Positions 21,073 through 35,480 of a stretch of DNA of 37,059 nucleotides are shown piece after piece (the first letter of the stretch is position 1; each line of letters starts with the position of its first letter). Source of the stretch: a virus (lineage: Duplodnaviria; Heunggongvirae; Uroviricota; Caudoviricetes). The stretch lies in IMG/VR virus record IMGVR_UViG_2657245588_000006. One strand, written 5' to 3'. The notes beneath the pieces were generated by a model. The model saw only the letters and a program-made list of their open reading frames with translations. It ran no database searches and had not been told where the DNA came from. Both the position numbers and the translations under genes were made by a program.

Positions 21073-22068
21073 ATGTTTGAGCAGCGTAAAGCCCTGTATG
21101 CGCAACTGGAACAAGCACGCAATTCAAAAGTATTATGCTATGTAACAGGTGATAGACCAAACCAAGAAGCTCAAATCAGCGCTGATGTATTCGATCTGTT
21201 CGTCAATCATCTTGATGTGATAGGTGATGTTCAAAAAATTAGCCTCGTGCTCTATACGCGAGGCGGCGACACTTTAACAGCATGGAGCCTTGTAAACCTG
21301 CTTCGTCAGTTTTGTAAAGAACTCGAAATCATAATCCCATCCAAATGCCATAGTTCTGGGACGATAATGTGCCTTGGCGCGAACAACTTGGTTATGACCA
21401 AGCAGGCAACCTTAGGGCCAATCGATCCAAGTGTGAATACACCACTTAACCCTTCGGCCATAATCAATGGGCAGCCACTTCAACTTCCAGTCAGTGTTGA
21501 AGAAATCAATGGCTATCTTGAAGTAGTTAAGCATGATTTGAGTATCAAAGATGATGCCTCACTTGCACAGATCCTCCTTGCATTAAGTGAAAAGGTTCAT
21601 CCCTTGGTACTTGGAAAAGTCTATCGAGCTAAAGCGCAGATTCAAATGCTCGCAAGAAAACTACTGTCTCACCAACTCACTGATAGTGAAAGCATTGAGA
21701 AAATTGTAAGTTTCCTTTGTAGTGATTCTGGTAGCCATGACTACACTATAAATAGGATTGAAGCGGTAAACGATTTAGGTCTTACGGTGGAAAAACCAGA
21801 TGAGCACCTTTACGGTCTGATCAAAGAAATTTATGAAGATTTCAAAACTGAGATGCATCTGGGTGAACCTTTTGACCCAAATGCTATCTTAGGAACAGTT
21901 AACCAGGCATCGTACGTATCTGTCAGAAGCATTTTAGAGGCTCCAGACACGTTTTCATATCAATTCCGCACTGAGGGGATGTTACAGCGTTTGCAAGTTC
22001 CAGGCGTCCCAGGTCAGTTCGGCATAAATCATAACCTTATCTCAGAGGGGTGGGCTCGACATGGATAA
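21073..22068 (+). CDS. ClpP/crotonase-fold serine protease, SDH (serine dehydrogenase proteinase)-family-like
   Basis: 331-aa ORF with AAGGA RBS; YTRGGDTLTAWSL and KCHSSGTIMCLGAN resemble the ClpP/SppA oxyanion and Ser-nucleophile regions; oriented opposite to the flanking Q and S genes. Confidence 0.6.
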   Translation: MFEQRKALYAQLEQARNSKVLCYVTGDRPNQEAQISADVFDLFVNHLDVIGDVQKISLVLYTRGGDTLTAWSLVNLLRQFCKELEIIIPSKCHSSGTIMCLGANNLVMTKQATLGPIDPSVNTPLNPSAIINGQPLQLPVSVEEINGYLEVVKHDLSIKDDASLAQILLALSEKVHPLVLGKVYRAKAQIQMLARKLLSHQLTDSESIEKIVSFLCSDSGSHDYTINRIEAVNDLGLTVEKPDEHLYGLIKEIYEDFKTEMHLGEPFDPNAILGTVNQASYVSVRSILEAPDTFSYQFRTEGMLQRLQVPGVPGQFGINHNLISEGWARHG

Positions 22069-22272: not shown

Positions 22273-22635
22273 CTATTCACATTCTAAACGTATATCGAGC
22301 ATACTAAGGCAACCATCGATAAATCCCTCAGCCATCTGTATCTCAATGCGTATTAGTTTCTCATCCTTTTTACTAGCCTTGGCGAGCTTTCTTTTAGAGA
22401 TACCGTATAGGTAATGGGCAACAAGCAGCGAATGTTCGTCCGGCCTTTTTTGCTTTAGACGAGCAAGACAACCTTCAATAATTAATGCATCACTATCTGA
22501 ACAAGCCTGACGTGTTTTACTTGTATAGGGAAGAAGCCCTTTAAACCCAGCAGCTATAGGCGAATAATCTACTCCAGAACTATCACTCGCCGCCCATGCT
22601 CCCCAACGCTCCAGAACCATCTGAATATCACGCAT
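22273..22635 (-). CDS. Q: Late-gene antiterminator Q (QuuD / phage-82-type, not lambda-Q-type)
   Basis: ATG at 22635 with GGAG RBS gives 120 aa starting MRDIQMVLERWGAWAA, the start I recall for QuuD-type Q proteins. Confidence 0.8.
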   Translation of the reverse strand: MRDIQMVLERWGAWAASDSSGVDYSPIAAGFKGLLPYTSKTRQACSDSDALIIEGCLARLKQKRPDEHSLLVAHYLYGISKRKLAKASKKDEKLIRIEIQMAEGFIDGCLSMLDIRLECE

Positions 22636-22652
22636 CAACTTTCTCCACAAAA

Positions 22653-23648
22653 TCAGGCCAGCACACCAATCGCCAGCGCACGATCGATAAAACGAAATAT
22701 CAGCTCCAGCTGGGAGCCATACTTCTCTTCAAATGCCACGGTATCCGCATGCAGCTCGTCGTGATGCTTTCTGCACAAAGGCAACACAAAAAGGTCATGC
22801 GCTTTTGTACCCATTCCACCCTGACCGTGGCCTATCAGGTGGTGGGGATCATCGGCGGGCTTTCCACAACATGCACACGGCTGCGTCTTAACCCAGCGCG
22901 TGTACTTTTCATTAACCCAGCGGCGACGTTTTGGGCGTAACATAAAAGACTCCGGCGACTCCGGCTCCACTTTCAGCGCCAGCACCTTTTTCGCTTTATC
23001 CTGGATGATGCTGGTGGCAGGAACCGAAGGAACAAGATCACTTTCCCGGGTGACAGACGGCACAACAGGCTTCGGTAATCTCAGTGCCTTACGGGCTGCA
23101 CTTTCCGGTAAGGCATCCGCCAGGTCATTACGAACCAGCCACCAGCACAGTTCCGGCATTGTCACAACGTGACTGTCATCAAAACCGAGATCCCGACGCA
23201 CGACAGACAACACCCAGCGGGCACAGTTATCCGTTGCCATTGATTCCAGCCGTTCCGTGAACTGATCGCGCAGCTGGTTATCGCAGTGCCAGCACAGACG
23301 GATTGCGCCCGGAGCGTGTCGCATTGTGGTCATGTTCTCGCTGTGCCAGTCGGAATGAGGCCACTGGCAGCCTTTTTCACGAAGTAACCAGCTTTCAAGA
23401 CATTCCACGCCACCAGCACGACGGATCACCGCCTCATTGCGGAACACAGCCCGAACGGCAGGATCATCCGCCAGTGGTTGTAATGCCGCCGGAACGGCAC
23501 CACTGGAAAAAGATGAATAATGTTCCGGCTCAGGCTCCAGCAGGACACGCCCCTGCATAAACAGGGGCATCAGCTCTGAACCGGGTCTGAACAATACGAT
23601 CCCCATACGCGGGGCAATTTCAGGGGTCAGTAGCGCTCTCACGGTCAC
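22653..23648 (-). CDS. DUF968-domain protein (HNH-like C-terminal motif)
   Basis: 331-aa ORF; C-terminal CACCGKPADDPHHLIGHGQGGMGTKAHDLFVLPLCRKHHDELH; GTG at the track start, true start uncertain. Confidence 0.6.
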   Translation of the reverse strand: MTVRALLTPEIAPRMGIVLFRPGSELMPLFMQGRVLLEPEPEHYSSFSSGAVPAALQPLADDPAVRAVFRNEAVIRRAGGVECLESWLLREKGCQWPHSDWHSENMTTMRHAPGAIRLCWHCDNQLRDQFTERLESMATDNCARWVLSVVRRDLGFDDSHVVTMPELCWWLVRNDLADALPESAARKALRLPKPVVPSVTRESDLVPSVPATSIIQDKAKKVLALKVEPESPESFMLRPKRRRWVNEKYTRWVKTQPCACCGKPADDPHHLIGHGQGGMGTKAHDLFVLPLCRKHHDELHADTVAFEEKYGSQLELIFRFIDRALAIGVLA

Positions 23649-23649
23649 C

Positions 23650-24459
23650 TCAATGAACGGTATCGAGCAGCTTTAACAGCTCAGGGAATCGGGATTCGAA
23701 GAAATGCGGCTGCGTCTCACGCGGATTTGCAGGACTGGTGATGTTCTTGCCGAACATGCAGCCTTTCGCCGTCAGCGACCAGAATTTTTTAATGTTGTTA
23801 ATTGCGGTACGGCTGTATCGTTCGCGTTGTTCAACGATCCCCAGCTTCGCCATCTGGTGATATGCCTGATTAGCCGTCAGGCGGATACCATACTGCTTCA
23901 GCAGTGCACTCAGCGCCAGCGTCGGGCGGCTTGAGCCATCAGGCGCGTCAGCAGGAGCATCAATGGCATAGCGCGGTGCCAGATTCGGTAAGCCAACAGC
24001 CTCCTGGAGTTTCTGACAGGCACCAAGCACTGAAGAGTTAGACAGGTTTAACTCCCGGCGCATAAAGTCCAGCAGAATCACGCCAGCCTGCATCTTGTCA
24101 GCAGCCTGCCCGGATAATTTTTCCGGTGTGCTGGTTACCATATCGAAAGTACGGATCACCTTCAGATGGAATGACGGGCTGATCCACATTGCATAGGCAT
24201 ACACCAGTTCCTTACAGACATACGTTCCCCGTTCATTTCCCCCATGAATCACACTCACCGGGTCAACACCCAAATTCTGGGTGTTGGTTAATTCATGAAC
24301 AAGCTCAACAGTTTGTTGGCTGGAAAGAAACTTTCCTGGCTCCTTGGTTCTGGCATTTGCACCAGATGCTACTGCTGCGCGATGCAGATCGTTCAGGCTG
24401 TAACGCCCATAAGCATCCCGACGAACTTCAATACCATCAATGACCATCAGATTATTCAT
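23650..24459 (-). CDS. KilA-N domain protein
   Basis: 269-aa ORF; N-terminal MVIDGIEVRRDAYGRYSLNDLHRA resembles the KilA-N domain. Confidence 0.55.
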   Translation of the reverse strand: MNNLMVIDGIEVRRDAYGRYSLNDLHRAAVASGANARTKEPGKFLSSQQTVELVHELTNTQNLGVDPVSVIHGGNERGTYVCKELVYAYAMWISPSFHLKVIRTFDMVTSTPEKLSGQAADKMQAGVILLDFMRRELNLSNSSVLGACQKLQEAVGLPNLAPRYAIDAPADAPDGSSRPTLALSALLKQYGIRLTANQAYHQMAKLGIVEQRERYSRTAINNIKKFWSLTAKGCMFGKNITSPANPRETQPHFFESRFPELLKLLDTVH

Positions 24460-24478
24460 ACTTCGTTTCTCCTCTTAA

Positions 24479-24868
24479 TCAGGCGGCTGCACCCGCCGTT
24501 TTCTCGTACTTACTGATAGTGATCTCGACCTTCCCTTCCGGGATAACCGGTCCCCACTCCACCAGCATTCTTTTCACCTGACTGTCGTCTTCCCACACAC
24601 CCGCGTGGGTCAGGGCGTCAAACAGCGCCTTGTTATAGTTGTCCAGATCGCGGATCCGGTTATCCGGAGGAAACAACACGATCTCCACTGAAGCAGGTGC
24701 CGACGTTGGTTTCGGCAGACGACGTAACTGCTCAACTATTGCTGCGCACGCCGCGCTCTGGAATTTTCGCCCCGCCGCGCTTATCAGGCTCTTACCAGCA
24801 AACGCCCCTTTGTTGGGGTGTCGCCAGTACGTGTTCACGCTGGGCGGAAAAGGCAGGATCAGCTTCAT
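24479..24868 (-). CDS. rusA: Holliday-junction resolvase RusA
   Basis: 129-aa ORF with a RusA-like acidic motif RIRDLDNYNKALFDALTHAGVWEDDSQV; ATGA overlap with the upstream stop. Confidence 0.75.
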   Translation of the reverse strand: MKLILPFPPSVNTYWRHPNKGAFAGKSLISAAGRKFQSAACAAIVEQLRRLPKPTSAPASVEIVLFPPDNRIRDLDNYNKALFDALTHAGVWEDDSQVKRMLVEWGPVIPEGKVEITISKYEKTAGAAA

Positions 24869-25191
24869 ACTTTCAGGTCCCTCTCATGTAACCAGTGGGT
24901 TGCACGCAGCCTTGCGTTTTCCTCACCGGCAAGCAGTGCGCGGATAATCCCGACCGCCTCGCTGTCGTCGTCCTTCACCGCGGTATGAAGCGTTATCCCC
25001 CGGGCCACGCCACGCTTTATCGTGATGACGCCTTTTTTCTCCAGTGCGCGAAGATGCTCCACCGCTGCATTCACCGAACGGTATCCCAGCATGGTTGCCA
25101 CCTCCTGATTGGTTGGCGGGAAGCCACGTTCTTTCTGATAAGAAATCAGCATATCCAGCACCTGCTGCTGGCATTGAGTTAACGTCGTCAT
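24865..25191 (-). CDS. LexA-type N-terminal DNA-binding domain protein (no peptidase domain)
   Basis: 108-aa ORF; LTQCQQQVLDMLISYQKERGFPPTNQEVATMLGYRSVNAAVEHLRALEKKGVI resembles the LexA winged helix; AGGGAG RBS. Confidence 0.55.
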   Translation of the reverse strand: MTTLTQCQQQVLDMLISYQKERGFPPTNQEVATMLGYRSVNAAVEHLRALEKKGVITIKRGVARGITLHTAVKDDDSEAVGIIRALLAGEENARLRATHWLHERDLKV

Positions 25192-25259
25192 GCCGCCATC
25201 TCCCTGACCAGTTTTTCTGCCTGCTGGCGAACCTGCGCCAGAAACGCCTCACCACATGC

Positions 25260-25841
25260 CTAAAGTTCATCGCGCCCGATGTAGCTGATTGCCGGTCCCT
25301 TCCAGGTCTTGTCGAAAACAGCAATAGCACCAGCGAAGAAAGCGCCTGTCGGCACCTGCTTCTCATCCTTCGGGATAAACCAGGCAGGCAGTTCAAAACC
25401 AATACGCCCGCGAATAAAAGCAATATGGTCCGCATCTTCCGGCCACCACACTTCGCTGGTGGCAGCTTTGATCAGGAAAACATAGCGCCCGCCCTTATCA
25501 CGCATGGCACTGGCATGTTTCATGATGTAACGCATGCCGGTGATGTATTGCCCCTCATGCTGACTGGCGCGGCTGTATGGGGGATTACCAAAGGCAGCAC
25601 CTTTAAGCTCCGCAAGACGTTCTGACCAGTCATGCGCCAGCGCGTTATCTTCCGCCGTGTAATACGCGGCACATTTGGCGTTATCACCGTCAGTGAACAG
25701 ATCCAGAACAAACGGGCCAAACAGGGTGTTAATTCCCCAGAAAATGTTGTCCGGCGTGCGCCACTGATCGCCCACTTCCTTCAGTTCATGGGCTGGTTTG
25801 TTCCGCAGTTCCACCAGCGCCTGGCAATATTTATTACTCAT
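25260..25841 (-). CDS. Phage DNA N6-adenine methyltransferase (Dam-type)
   Basis: ATG at 25841 overlaps the upstream stop (TAATG); catalytic motif FGNPPYS; about 193 aa. Confidence 0.75.
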   Translation of the reverse strand: MSNKYCQALVELRNKPAHELKEVGDQWRTPDNIFWGINTLFGPFVLDLFTDGDNAKCAAYYTAEDNALAHDWSERLAELKGAAFGNPPYSRASQHEGQYITGMRYIMKHASAMRDKGGRYVFLIKAATSEVWWPEDADHIAFIRGRIGFELPAWFIPKDEKQVPTGAFFAGAIAVFDKTWKGPAISYIGRDEL

Positions 25842-26335
25842 TAAGCCCCCACGTAATTCCCTGACAGATACCACTCTTCACCCGATGCAGCGCGCTTGCT
25901 GCTTTTCCGTAAACACCGCTCACGACGCGCAAGAAAATTGTTTCGCTCTTGCTGGGAGTGGCTTTCACGGAATGCCGCCATCCACACCGTTGCAGCACGA
26001 CGGTATAAGCCCCTGGACTCCAGTTCTTCCGCCTGGCGGGTCAGGCATAAAATCACCCGGGGATCGTTAGTGCCGACATAGAAATTGCGCACAGATCTGG
26101 TTTCTCGAACTGGTTGTGGTTCCGGTTCCTGCGCTCTCTCAGTCAGGCGCGGAAAATGTCTGCGTGTATCTCCTTCACAACGGTGAGCCACACGCCCACT
26201 CTGACGTAACTTGCTTGCAGACTGCAGAACGCGCTGCCGTGAGTAACCTGCAAAAGCATCCGTAATGTCTCCGGAAGTACACCCCGGATGGGCTTCAATG
26301 AATTTCTGAACGTCATTCAAAAGACTCATGATCAC
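25841..26335 (-). CDS. Hypothetical protein with N-terminal wHTH-like and C-terminal PerC-like region
   Basis: 164-aa ORF, ATGA-coupled to the O-like gene; C-terminal LTRQAEELESRGLYRRAATVWMAAFRESH resembles PerC/Pch-family activators as I remember them. Confidence 0.4.
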   Translation of the reverse strand: MIMSLLNDVQKFIEAHPGCTSGDITDAFAGYSRQRVLQSASKLRQSGRVAHRCEGDTRRHFPRLTERAQEPEPQPVRETRSVRNFYVGTNDPRVILCLTRQAEELESRGLYRRAATVWMAAFRESHSQQERNNFLARRERCLRKSSKRAASGEEWYLSGNYVGA

Positions 26336-27273
26336 CCCCTGAATCCTGCCGGGATCTGGCTGTAGTCCACGTTGTCGTAACTGGATTTGAAGTACGGGTC
26401 TTCGCGTTTTTCGGTGTACGTGCTGACGGACGGCGATAAGCGCAGGGAAAGCTCATCCCATTTTTCCCGCAACTTCGACGGGCTGAGCACGTTACGGCAC
26501 CAGAACGGATCGCGGCTGACGCGGCTGTACATCTCGCAGATTTGTTTGTGAGTACGACCATCCTGCACGCACATCAGGCGAATTTCGTTTGCCCAGGCTG
26601 TCCAGTTCGGTTCTTTGGGACGAACCACCTCGCCGTCACATTCGGCAGCCTGCTCGTACAGGGCGATGATTTTTTTCCAGAGCCACTGTGCGCAGGTCAA
26701 ATCATCCTGCGTTCCCCACTGGCGCTTTTTAGGGCTGAATACAACCGCATCAGGATGGCGAGTTAAAAACTCTTGTTCAGCCGTCTGCGTGTCCGGTTGC
26801 GAAGCGTCCGGACGAGAAGTTTTTTTATCTGACGGATCATGTTTTGATTTTACTGACGGATCCCCGCCAGATTCTGACGGGTGAAAACCCGCTTTTTTGC
26901 CAGATTTCGACGCATCAAATTTTGACTGGTCAGATTTTGATGCGTCAGATTTTGACGGGTCAGAATCTGACAGTTGAGAAAATGCCGCTGCCTGAAGCTT
27001 CGCAACGTTAAGCTGATAAACATTCGACGCATTGCGGTTACCCTGGCGACGCGCCTTACGCGTTAACCAGCCTTCTGCTTCCAGCCGTGCGATAGCCGTT
27101 CTGACGGTGCTCATCCCCGCGCCAATCTGGCGGGCAATGGTTTCAATTGATGGCCAGCACACACCTTCGTCATTACTGAAATCAGCCAGGCGGGCCATAA
27201 TTGCCACGCTGGATAACTTCATGCCTGACGCAGCGCAACCATCCCATACATAGCCGGTTAATTTAGTGCTCAT
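26332..27273 (-). CDS. Replication initiator, lambda-O-like replisome organizer
   Basis: 313-aa ORF; N-terminal HTH-like region, a central pentapeptide-repeat linker encoded by the iterons, and a C-terminal domain; sits downstream of the cro/CII-like genes. Confidence 0.65.
   Translation of the reverse strand: MSTKLTGYVWDGCAASGMKLSSVAIMARLADFSNDEGVCWPSIETIARQIGAGMSTVRTAIARLEAEGWLTRKARRQGNRNASNVYQLNVAKLQAAAFSQLSDSDPSKSDASKSDQSKFDASKSGKKAGFHPSESGGDPSVKSKHDPSDKKTSRPDASQPDTQTAEQEFLTRHPDAVVFSPKKRQWGTQDDLTCAQWLWKKIIALYEQAAECDGEVVRPKEPNWTAWANEIRLMCVQDGRTHKQICEMYSRVSRDPFWCRNVLSPSKLREKWDELSLRLSPSVSTYTEKREDPYFKSSYDNVDYSQIPAGFRG
26826..26974. repeat. ori: Iteron array (candidate replication origin) inside the O-like gene
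   Basis: Five tandem 15-bp units of consensus TCAGATTTTGACGGG at 26900..26974 plus three degenerate copies at 26826..26882, with an adjacent AT-richer stretch at about 26814..26860. Confidence 0.6.
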
Positions 27274-27282
27274 GACCGACCT

Positions 27283-27621
27283 CTATTTCCCTGAATTTAC
27301 GACGAAACTGTTCGAGCGGGCTGAAGCACTCATGCTCATAGCCTTCGCGGAGGTAGATAACCCGTTGTGTTTCCGGTTCCCAACGAATGACTCTGACGGG
27401 CACTCCGTAGTGATCTTTGAACCAGCGGTTAACTTGTCGCAAAGGACTGTCTCCTTTTGCCGGTTGAAATCACCCACAGCCCACTCTGCAAAGCTGTGGG
27501 TTACAATTTCCCTGTCACCTGGTACATTCACTGCATAGCAATACTCCACCTTCGCTTTTCCACCCGGTACAGGAAGTGCAATCAGTTGCGAGCGACGGTA
27601 GTGTGTTGTTAAACTGTTCAT
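27283..27621 (-). CDS. Hypothetical protein
   Basis: 112-aa ORF; ATG overlaps the upstream stop (ATGA); no family recognised. Confidence 0.5.
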
Positions 27622-28232
27622 GCGTTAGTTTCTCCACAACCAGAAGCAATCGACGCCACGACGCCCGGAGCTGCACACTCGCGGGCGTCATTACTTTCTG
27701 AAATGCAAAAAATTTTGTAGACAAGTGCTGCATGCTCCTGCAGCTTCGAAATTGAGAGATACAGCTCGTCGTTAATTGCTGTCTTCTCATGCGGTTCCAC
27801 TACACCGTCTTCGATTGCTGAACGAATCTGTTTTGAATAACTGCCGATCTGTTCAATGACTTCCAGCAGACGCTGGTTAATATCGGCGTTGTCCACATCC
27901 TCGACGTCAGGAAGAGACACAAAGACGCCATTTGCAGACTGCGCCACAGCATCAGCAATGAAGTGAGTTCCACCAGCACGTTGCAAAATCATTGCCCATC
28001 CCAGCGGGAAAATCTGATCGCCATCAGCACGAAGGCGGTTAAATAATGCGTTCTCTGTTACATCCAGCCAGTCAGCTGCTTCAGCGTAACCACCCGGCAA
28101 CTTTGCGATAGTTTTTCTGACAGCTTTCACGTACCACTCAGGCTGTTTTTCTACTTTCCAGTGATGCTTACCCACGGTTAGCCTCATCGTTCTGTGGTTT
28201 CTGTTAATCGATTTATCCATTAGATTTTTCAT
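27618..28232 (-). CDS. CII-like / YdaT-family regulatory protein (tentative)
   Basis: Second gene after the cro-like gene; track ORF starts inside the cro-like gene, so the start is placed at the ATG at 28232 (ATG at 28220 is an alternative). Confidence 0.45.
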
Positions 28233-28413
28233 AAAGCTCAGGTTTAAATGGCAACCGTCCGCAAGTTCTATATGCAGCTTCTGCTGCACGTCCTTTTGGA
28301 ATTAACTGGCCCGGACGGTTTCGCCACTGATAAACGGCTTCAGTTGTTATGCCGAAAAAAGCAGCAACTTTCTCAATACTGCCGAAGTAGCTTTCGATAT
28401 CGTCAGTTGTCAT
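28213..28413 (-). CDS. cro: Cro-like HTH repressor
   Basis: 66-aa ORF with HTH (GITTEAVYQWRNRPGQ); GGAGG RBS; divergent from cI. Confidence 0.8.
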   Translation of the reverse strand: MTTDDIESYFGSIEKVAAFFGITTEAVYQWRNRPGQLIPKGRAAEAAYRTCGRLPFKPELYEKSNG

Positions 28414-28424
28414 ACGCCCTCCAA

Positions 28425-28489
28425 ACTAAGTTTTATTAGATGCTAATTACAAATCTATCTTTGGTCAATAAAAACTAAGATTACTTAGC
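28425..28489. promoter_or_regulatory. Right operator region with divergent promoters (pR-like on the minus strand; pRM-like unresolved)
   Basis: Two ACTAAG-N5-TTAG sites at 28425..28439 and 28474..28488; minus-strand -35 TTGACC (28463..28468) and -10 TAGCAT (28440..28445) with a 17-nt spacer, overlapped by the first site. Confidence 0.5.
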
Positions 28490-34478: not shown

Positions 34479-35435
34479 TTATTTACCCTTATTATACTCT
34501 TCAGTAATCTTATTCATGGATGATATATATTTATCCAGCCCACCATAGTTGGCTATCATTCGAAATGAATTACGGTACTCTGCCATTTTCACATCATGAT
34601 TAGTAATTCCACACCAGCCACAAACTTTATTTTCCATGTTTAAAGGCTCATAACATTTTTTACATTGCCTTGATGCAGGTATTATATTGCCATTAATAAA
34701 TTGGTGTGATTTGAGATTTTGAGATAAAAGAAATGGTGTAGTTGTTGTTTTTCCTATTACCATTTCGAAATATCTACATTTAGCCTTTTTAGCTAAAGAT
34801 TGAATTTTCTGCTTTAATAAATCATTTGATTTGTGCCCAACTATAACTCCAGTTATACAATTAATCGGTACCGGAAGGAGCATAAGATTGTCATTCAGTT
34901 TAGTAAGTGCTTTCTCATTAATTATTACGCGACGTTCCTGCTCATAACTCCAGCAAGTTTGTTTTGTCAAATATGCGGCTGTCATTATACAGGATTGTAG
35001 CCAGTAGATATAACGAGGTTTACAGATATGAAATGCTCTCGCCAGAATGTCTTCAATACCTGTATCTGGAGAATCTTTATATTCAACATCTGCTATTGAA
35101 CTATGATCCTGGAAGCCGATTTCATCCAAATACTTTTTAAACTTCTCCTCATTAATCTCTATTACAAAACCAGAAGAATTACCTGCATAATGTGCCCACA
35201 TAGGTGGTATCACAGGGCTTTTCGTAAAACAAGTTGCTGGTTGTTTTGTAACCATGCCAATCATTTCATTGTAAAATGCTAACTCATCAGAACCGCGATT
35301 AAAATCAATAGTAAGGAAAAACTCATAGGGATCATTATATTCATGTAAATGAGAGAATTTTATTCCTATATGTGTTTCATCCATCATCAATTTATCAATT
35401 ATATCCGCTCCCATAAACTTATACAAATTGGTCAT
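34479..35435 (-). CDS. DUF2971-like protein with C-terminal CxxC...CxxC zinc ribbon (function unknown; family assignment tentative)
   Basis: ATG at 35435 with AGGAG RBS gives 318 aa; N-terminal LYKFMGADIIDKLMMDETHIGIKFSHLHEYNDPYEF pattern; C-terminal CKKCYEPLNMENKVCGWCG; strongly AT-rich. Confidence 0.5.
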   Translation of the reverse strand: MTNLYKFMGADIIDKLMMDETHIGIKFSHLHEYNDPYEFFLTIDFNRGSDELAFYNEMIGMVTKQPATCFTKSPVIPPMWAHYAGNSSGFVIEINEEKFKKYLDEIGFQDHSSIADVEYKDSPDTGIEDILARAFHICKPRYIYWLQSCIMTAAYLTKQTCWSYEQERRVIINEKALTKLNDNLMLLPVPINCITGVIVGHKSNDLLKQKIQSLAKKAKCRYFEMVIGKTTTTPFLLSQNLKSHQFINGNIIPASRQCKKCYEPLNMENKVCGWCGITNHDVKMAEYRNSFRMIANYGGLDKYISSMNKITEEYNKGK

Positions 35436-35480
35436 ATACAACTCCTTTTTTATAAAATAACATTTTAAATCATATGATTA

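Follow-up and report, generated by a model that had tools for sequence, protein, structure and literature searches.

YfdN, a prophage protein combining a PerC/ANR-type helical core with a putative winged helix, and its place in an early-right operon

Does a PerC-like protein encoded beside the replication genes of a prophage control the virulence of its host, as its family name suggests, or does it serve the phage that carries it? The question is raised by a stretch of DNA of 37,059 nucleotides (IMG/VR record IMGVR_UViG_2657245588_000006; hereafter the window, meaning the whole stretch analysed), which is an SfII / CPS-53-type lambdoid prophage in an E. coli chromosome. An earlier note on this DNA, written from the letters alone, had singled out a 164-amino-acid protein with a segment resembling PerC/Pch-type activators, encoded between an O-like initiator gene and a Dam-type methylase gene. 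The open reading frame (ORF) in question is yfdN, a common E. coli prophage gene that is already known and annotated. The reading that we favour, with confidence about evenly balanced between belief and doubt, is that YfdN is a DNA-tethered modulator of the PerC/ANR type, encoded by an accessory gene of the early-right (pR) operon and acting in lytic development.

The gene and its two domains

In the window, yfdN is an intact minus-strand ORF at positions 25841-26335, with its TAA stop codon at 25843-25841. Its DNA is 100% identical to that of a RefSeq yfdN, whose product already bears the label "PerC family transcriptional regulator" (WP_074527436.1) in the NCBI Prokaryotic Genome Annotation Pipeline (PGAP); the encoded allele differs from the commonest one at three residues. 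A yfdN match is present in 2673 of the 5426 complete E. coli genomes, K-12 included, i.e. in about half of them whatever the pathotype, and PHROG 1324 ('transcriptional activator') matches the whole protein (E 1.8e-78). The orthologues of K-12 (CPS-53/KpLE1), SfII (SfII_42) and SfIV (gp42) are the same gene, being 95-100% identical and of the same length. In the literature, the K-12 gene is described as "the K12 unique PerC homologue" (PMC5931665); it was scored as an unknown gene in a glycogen overexpression screen (PMC2853380), and its product is listed as "uncharacterized protein YfdN" in an interactome preprint (bioRxiv 10.1101/2025.05.07.652715).

Two start codons can be considered: the GTG at 26335, used by PGAP and by the earlier note, gives a protein of 164 residues, and the ATG at 26329 gives one of 161 residues. 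The ATG is the likelier start because all the YfdN homologues begin M-S-L/M; an AGGGGG sequence lies 5 nt upstream of it. With this numbering, the gene and the parts of its product are as follows.

25841..26329, minus strand: yfdN coding sequence, 161 residues plus stop, from the likely ATG
26150..26329, minus strand: winged helix-turn-helix domain, residues 1-60 (AlphaFold2, Foldseek and Pfam matches of family members)
26066..26149, minus strand: variable disordered linker, residues 61-88
25886..26065, minus strand: PerC/ANR-type three-helix domain, residues 89-148, which contains LTRQAEELESRGLYRRAATVWMAAFRESH
25844..25885, minus strand: C-terminal tail, residues 149-161, with the motif WYLSGNYVG at residues 153-161 (25844-25870)

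The likeness to PerC is genuine. Indeed, the Pfam PerC profile (PF06069) matches residues 98-149 of YfdN with E 2.2e-9 and 37.9 bits, where the gathering cut-off is 22.6, and it also matches 34 of 35 diverse two-domain relatives. The absence of any PerC match, which the earlier note had named as its own refutation, is thereby contradicted. When the YfdN family (positions 96-152) was aligned by hhalign with the first 57 residues of the small PerC-like proteins, a probability of 99.2% was obtained (E 2.3e-19), the aligned core motif being LE-x-[KR]-GL-[YW]-RRAA-x-x-W ... RR-x-x-C. The PerC-like segment LTRQAEELESRGLYRRAATVWMAAFRESH is thus present as claimed, except that the protein does not end in it: it occupies residues 96-124 of 161 and is followed by 37 more. 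The match is partial in another respect, since it spans only positions 5-56 of the 90 in the PerC profile (the N-terminal 52 positions); the C-terminal third of PerC (profile positions 57-90, the RMG[IL] region) is absent from YfdN.

The same core also recalls the ANR family, whose signature consists of three helices with the residues A, E, A, W, A, (W), R and C (PMC4983702). AlphaFold2 predicts three helices in the C-domain of YfdN (residues 90-105, 109-122 and 126-148), with predicted local distance difference test scores (pLDDT) above 90 in both the full-length and the C-domain-alone models. The signature residues are conserved as A100, E104, A112, W116, A119, R135/136 and C139, the second W being replaced by F132. 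The NCBIfam model ANR_neg_reg (NF033650) reaches YfdN with an E-value of 2e-5 and 24.3 bits, whereas P0283, a distant two-domain relative that bears the ANR name at NCBI, passes the cut-off of the model with 33.4 bits. The PerC and ANR cores would thus seem to belong to a single superfamily.

What sets YfdN apart from both families is its N-terminal domain. The AlphaFold2 model of YfdN, built on an alignment of 17 sequences, shows three helices and a beta hairpin (the wing) in residues 1-60, with a pLDDT of about 90, and Foldseek superposes this domain on the DNA-binding domains of the ArsR/SmtB, MarR/MepR, BlaI/MecI and Fur/PerR types (probability 1.0, root-mean-square deviation 1.6-3 A over 56-67 residues). 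The accompanying E-values are weak (0.03-0.1), as is usual for a domain of 60 residues. Some members of the family match Pfam MarR_2, Penicillinase_R or HTH_24 by sequence, and PHROG 1687 (MarR) matches YfdN itself at 2.4e-4. The model thus has the predicted fold of a winged helix, and we regard the N-domain as a putative DNA-binding domain of this kind. Paralogy with the DNA-binding domain of the neighbouring initiator or with that of the LexA-like protein was considered and rejected, no similarity being found. Generic winged helices were the sole Foldseek matches of the full-length model, and a sequence search of the PDB with YfdN returned no match even at E 10; the PADLOC defence models did not match YfdN either.

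The two domains are joined by a linker whose length and sequence vary across the family and which is predicted to be disordered (pLDDT below 50 at residues 63-84). The tail is also predicted to be disordered (from about residue 150 to the end); two-domain relatives as distant as about 30% identity still show its pattern, W/Y-x-L-[AS]-G-x-[YF]-x-G, and a tail of the WYLSGNYVG type is absent from the single-domain small PerC-like proteins. Overall, the two-domain architecture and the tail motif are conserved across genera down to about 25-30% identity.

These relatives were collected by a profile search of 1.84 billion representative proteins (E 0.001 or better), which gave 157 matches; about 30 of them are two-domain proteins of 140-165 residues, the remainder being fragments or small PerC-like proteins. 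The named members come from Escherichia, Shigella, Salmonella, Citrobacter, Hafnia, Klebsiella, Erwinia, Kosakonia and Pantoea. A scan of genome contigs for relatives yielded 8 loci, and the corresponding scan using P0283 yielded none. The databases also hold fusions of YfdN sequence to the N-terminus of the initiator, to Dam or to RusA (P0020-P0024, P0036-P0037, P0045), which are probably the products of deletions or frameshifts in decaying prophages.

Comparison with alleles 64-69% identical to it gave yfdN an overall ratio of nonsynonymous to synonymous substitution rates (dN/dS) of 0.10-0.23; the ratio is close to 0.1 in either domain and, where it could be estimated, near 0.5 in the linker. 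Such low values indicate that yfdN is maintained by purifying selection.

The question of host virulence

PerC and the Pch proteins are best known for what they do to virulence genes, and control of host virulence loci was implied for the protein of the window. The family domain, the prophage origin and the tight packing of the gene are all borne out; the implied control of host loci is unsupported. That YfdN is a Pch/PerC-like activator switching on host virulence loci such as LEE1/ler, in the enterocyte effacement locus (LEE), seems to us very unlikely. The domain is indeed of the PerC family by Pfam and hhalign, and PerC and PchA-C do activate ler (PMC5931665, PMC4764244). Moreover, yfdN was regarded by Uhlich et al. 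as a potential confounder, and they removed it from their ler-lacZ reporter strain as a precaution (PMC5931665). However, clear activation of ler was seen only with PerC and PchA-C among the PerC homologues tested: PchD had no effect and PchE a small one (<2-fold) (PMC5931665). YfdN lacks the C-terminal PerC region, as do the truncated variants PchD and PchE, and smaller Pch variants devoid of a region found in the larger ones have been described (PMC3378721). A PerC-like protein of a phage-inducible chromosomal island (PICI) even represses LEE1 (PMC11773190). Since yfdN is found in about half of the E. coli genomes regardless of pathotype, K-12 included, the LEE island cannot be its general target. 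Lastly, the gene sits within a repressor-controlled pR operon, where the promoter scan found no separate site for it. Its architecture, its position in the operon and its distribution thus argue together against the virulence-activator reading.

PerC, from the EAF plasmid of enteropathogenic E. coli, and PchA/B/C, from prophages of enterohaemorrhagic E. coli, share the helical core with YfdN and are, like it, carried by mobile elements. They are single-domain proteins of about 90-105 residues with an RMG[IL] C-terminal region, whereas YfdN lacks this region and adds a winged helix and a different tail; unlike them, it is encoded in a pR operon beside a replication gene, and activity on LEE1 is a property of PerC and PchA-C. 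PchD, PchE and the PICI PerC-like proteins (EcCIMP1_025, plus the proteins of EcCIEDL933 and EcCICFT073) are further PerC-family proteins of mobile elements that are not LEE activators (PMC5931665, PMC7369912, PMC11773190), so membership of the family does not predict LEE activation. These proteins also differ from YfdN, being small and single-domain, devoid of a winged helix and encoded on P4-like or PICI elements. Members of the ANR family (Aar, Rnr, Cnr; NF033650) have the three-helix module and the signature residues found in YfdN, but they are stand-alone proteins of less than 10 kDa that accompany genes for AraC/XylS regulators, whereas YfdN has 161 residues and two domains, and no AraC-family gene is found in the annotated neighbourhood of yfdN.

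As found, the gene matters little, for it is named and widely annotated, with its PerC label already in RefSeq. The label itself is of some consequence, since the PerC name invites over-reading as a virulence activator, a point to bear in mind where pathogenic potential is scored from prophage content. What gives YfdN a modest residual interest is that a fusion of a winged helix with a PerC/ANR module is very common in E. coli prophages: the protein links the PerC and ANR families through their shared three-helix core, to which it adds a putative DNA-binding head, and it could be a way to learn how PerC-type modules serve their own mobile elements, a matter distinct from the action of a few of them on LEE.

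Place in the early-right operon

The genes around yfdN follow one another on the minus strand in the order pR-like promoter, cro-like gene, ymfL, DUF4222 gene, O-like initiator gene, yfdN and dam; downstream of dam come a gene with a LexA DNA-binding domain, rusA, a KilA-N gene, a DUF968 gene, Q and then the lysis genes. The K-12, SfII and SfIV orthologues have the same neighbours, i.e. an O-like gene upstream and dam or the LexA-like gene downstream, with the difference that dam is a nonsense pseudogene in the window. The features that matter here are listed below.

26332..27273, minus strand: O-like replication initiator gene (HTH_36, 4e-11; phrog_391 'replication initiation O-like', 1.3e-134), named 'helix-turn-helix domain-containing protein' by PGAP
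26824..26969, no strand assigned: iteron-like direct and inverted repeats inside the initiator gene (families D1, I1 and I2)
25188..25841, minus strand: Dam-type N6-adenine methyltransferase gene (Pfam Dam PF05869, 9e-45), broken by a TAG at 25262-25260
28440..28468, minus strand: pR-like promoter between the cI-like and cro-like genes (consensus scan, 9/12 matches)

The location of the ORF between the O-like initiator gene and the Dam-type gene, as first described, is confirmed, and the junctions read from the sequence are tight. The initiator stop TGA lies at 26334-26332, where it is overlapped by the GTG at 26335 (GTGA), and the ATG at 26329 lies 2 nt past it; at the other end, the yfdN stop overlaps the dam ATG (25841) as TAATG. 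Judging from this geometry, yfdN may well be translationally coupled with both neighbours. The dam gene has a TAG in place of GAG at codon 194 with respect to the intact 217-residue Dam of a Stx2c phage, and PGAP/RefSeq flag the identical sequence as a pseudogene ('internal stop'); the dam of the window is thus either truncated or a pseudogene.

In a consensus promoter scan, the pR-like site was the sole promoter-like site upstream of yfdN on its strand. As no such site lies between pR and yfdN, the gene should be silent in a repressed lysogen. The repeats at 26824-26969, built on a TCTGACGG(A/G)TC-like unit and located in the portion of the initiator gene coding for a low-complexity SDxSKSD stretch, are the probable origin of the phage; the lambda origin likewise lies inside gene O. 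A search of the early-right operon (22273-28413, minus strand) by Pfam, PHROG and PGAP revealed no P-, DnaC- or DnaB-like gene, so that it looks like an initiator-only replication module. An initiator with no P/DnaC/DnaB-like gene is also seen in the functional phages SfII, SfIV, mEp390 and Flotzy (loci L002, L022, L152, L153).

The location after an initiator gene recurs among relatives across Enterobacterales. Phages vB_EcoS-569R4, Kati, PhiR29 and SfII share the initiator-yfdN-dam block at 97-98% identity; SfIV has the initiator and yfdN and lacks dam. For yfdN itself, the identity is 97-98% in SfII, SfIV, Kati, PhiR29 and the Stx2c phages. In Stx2c phages the match is confined to dam, yfdN and the final ~70 nt of the initiator gene. 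Relatives at 26-47% identity (from Salmonella, Erwinia and metagenomic phages) likewise lie directly 3' of an initiator gene, with a 4-nt overlap or a 2-nt gap, and the distance between stop and start is +2 or -4 nt in almost all of the more than 40 distinct combinations of upstream gene and YfdN. The initiators themselves, compared at 147 loci, are mosaic, with at least six types of N-terminal domain and three types of C-terminal domain. The arrangement is nevertheless not obligatory: mEp390 and Flotzy have the same type of initiator, with its IPxGFRG tail, and neither a yfdN-like gene nor a loader/P-like gene, which makes yfdN an optional accessory gene, located where the initiator gene gives way to the nin-like region, rather than a required replication partner. 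Some Klebsiella and Salmonella relatives also occur outside replication contexts, after AlpA or KilA-N genes.

The last 7 codons of the initiator gene (26335-26355) encode the IPxGFRG-type tail. An ending in [IV]P-x-GFRG is near-universal across the mosaic initiators, whether a yfdN-like gene follows or not (loci L007, L015, L021, L027, L091, L146-L154), and may either serve as a docking peptide or mark the boundary of a module. Co-adaptation of this tail with that of YfdN had been suggested by the recombination breakpoint of the Stx2c phages, which keeps the last ~24 initiator codons with yfdN, and by the joint absence of both tails in Erwinia and at loci L019/L020. It was rejected on account of mEp390 and Flotzy, which have the initiator tail and no yfdN-like gene; the Kosakonia-type relatives, in which the initiator tail is present and the YfdN tail absent, also speak against it.

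On the other side of yfdN, a DNA-modification gene is found within 0-3 genes downstream in every distinct context examined, the exceptions being the loci of the SfIV type and one that carries no label. These genes belong to different families: Dam (PF05869), C5 (PF00145), C5+D12 fusions, ParB+MT-A70, and ParB with a DpdA-like gene. The association was seen at loci L004, L007, L010, L014, L015, L019 and L154, and in Pantoea phage AH07 the yfdN-like gene is followed by ParB and a DpdA-like transglycosylase gene. The next recognisable gene is a methyltransferase gene in about 104 of 123 loci, a redundant sample with no baseline; in 18 of the 123, the functional phage SfIV among them, yfdN is directly followed by the LexA-like gene. 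The association may reflect a common insertion hot spot only.

Three other roles have to be set against that of an accessory modulator. Because it immediately follows the initiator gene, yfdN could be a replication accessory occupying the slot of lambda P, its product helping the initiator to load the host DnaB or acting at the origin. The slot and the coupled stop and start signals are indeed those of P or of the second genes of other replication modules, whatever the domain make-up of the initiator; genes of the P, DnaC or DnaB type are missing from the operon; and the probable origin lies only ~500 bp upstream, inside the initiator gene. Yet mEp390 and Flotzy are functional with the same type of initiator and neither a yfdN-like nor a loader gene, so that YfdN as a substitute for P was rejected as a required function. 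Furthermore, YfdN is homologous neither to lambda P nor, by Pfam, PHROGs and NCBIfam, similar to the P, DnaC and DnaB families; it does not resemble the DNA-binding domain of the initiator, and its relatives also reside beside AlpA and KilA-N genes. We consider a role of this kind quite unlikely. (The main text of a paper on the replication units of Stx phages, PMC8951638, does not mention PerC.)

Looking downstream instead, YfdN might be a regulator dedicated to the methyltransferase, timing its expression in the manner of the controller proteins of restriction-modification systems. The presence of modification genes of differing families in nearly all contexts, non-lambdoid ones included, speaks for this, but the count comes from a redundant sample for which no baseline was computed. 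Flotzy has methyltransferase genes in the same slot and no yfdN, while 18 loci, including SfIV, carry yfdN with no methyltransferase gene before the LexA-like gene. In the window itself, dam is dead and yfdN is intact, and the 4-nt overlaps leave no intergenic room for a regulated promoter. We consider a dedicated regulator unlikely. As to the view that yfdN is a decaying passenger ORF with no current function, it is hardly credible. The gene does persist in defective prophages beside pseudogenes such as the dam of the window, and many fused or truncated variants populate the databases; the dN/dS values, close to 0.1 in both domains, and the persistence of architecture and tail motif across genera are at odds with decay.

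Proposed mode of action

The modulator reading receives its mechanism from what is known of the two related families. Pch activates by displacing silencing complexes of H-NS, StpA and Hha (PMC4764244), and Aar, of the ANR family that works through protein-protein contacts, binds H-NS and AraC-family activators through its three helices (PMC5570504, PMC4983702). PerC/ANR modules are known to work on nucleoid and transcription proteins, not by means of a DNA-reading head of their own, which makes tethering by the winged helix the likeliest mechanism for YfdN. According to this scheme, yfdN would be transcribed from pR only after loss of the repressor or on infection, and YfdN would probably be translated in step with the initiator. 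The winged helix would then place the tethered PerC/ANR module at particular DNA sites, where the module would change local silencing, or the activity of an activator, on phage genes and perhaps on host genes during lytic growth.

Several points weigh against this proposal. A PerC-type module may not bind H-NS directly, and in the hands of Fukui et al. H-NS did not co-precipitate with PchA (PMC4764244). The score of YfdN with the ANR model (24.3 bits) is below the curated cut-off of 32. With the C-domain alone, Foldseek returned only weak, non-significant matches to helical hairpins of the TPR/MIT type and no mechanistic lead. No target site or operator for the winged helix was identified, the evidence for the promoter is weak pattern matching only, and our literature search turned up no functional study of YfdN itself.

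A bolder version of the tethered-modulator reading, which we judge improbable, would make the YfdN-type proteins a distinct class. Their winged helix would deliver a hairpin that binds H-NS or an activator to the origin region or to the downstream early genes, among them the DNA-modification module usually found there; nucleoid silencing would thereby be lifted, so that replication or DNA modification would be licensed at an early stage of lytic growth, and the tail W-x-L-[AS]-G-x-[YF]-x-G would be a docking peptide for a host partner. Action on the phage's own origin and early genes is suggested because yfdN directly follows the initiator gene in a large set of lambdoid phages that are initiator-only.

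Several further genes were noticed around these loci. In Salmonella prophages (L007-L009, 2092-2725), the opposite strand carries, just upstream of the initiator gene, the gene pair TumE / HVO_A0114, which may be a toxin-antitoxin pair; locus L017 (144-795) has such a pair ~3 kb upstream of its yfdN-like gene. In the window, a gene for an SDH-family serine protease of the Clp fold (21073-22068, plus strand) occupies a moron-like position, flanked by Q and the lysis genes, and a DUF2971 gene (34479-35441, minus strand) adjoins the integrase gene at the edge of the prophage.

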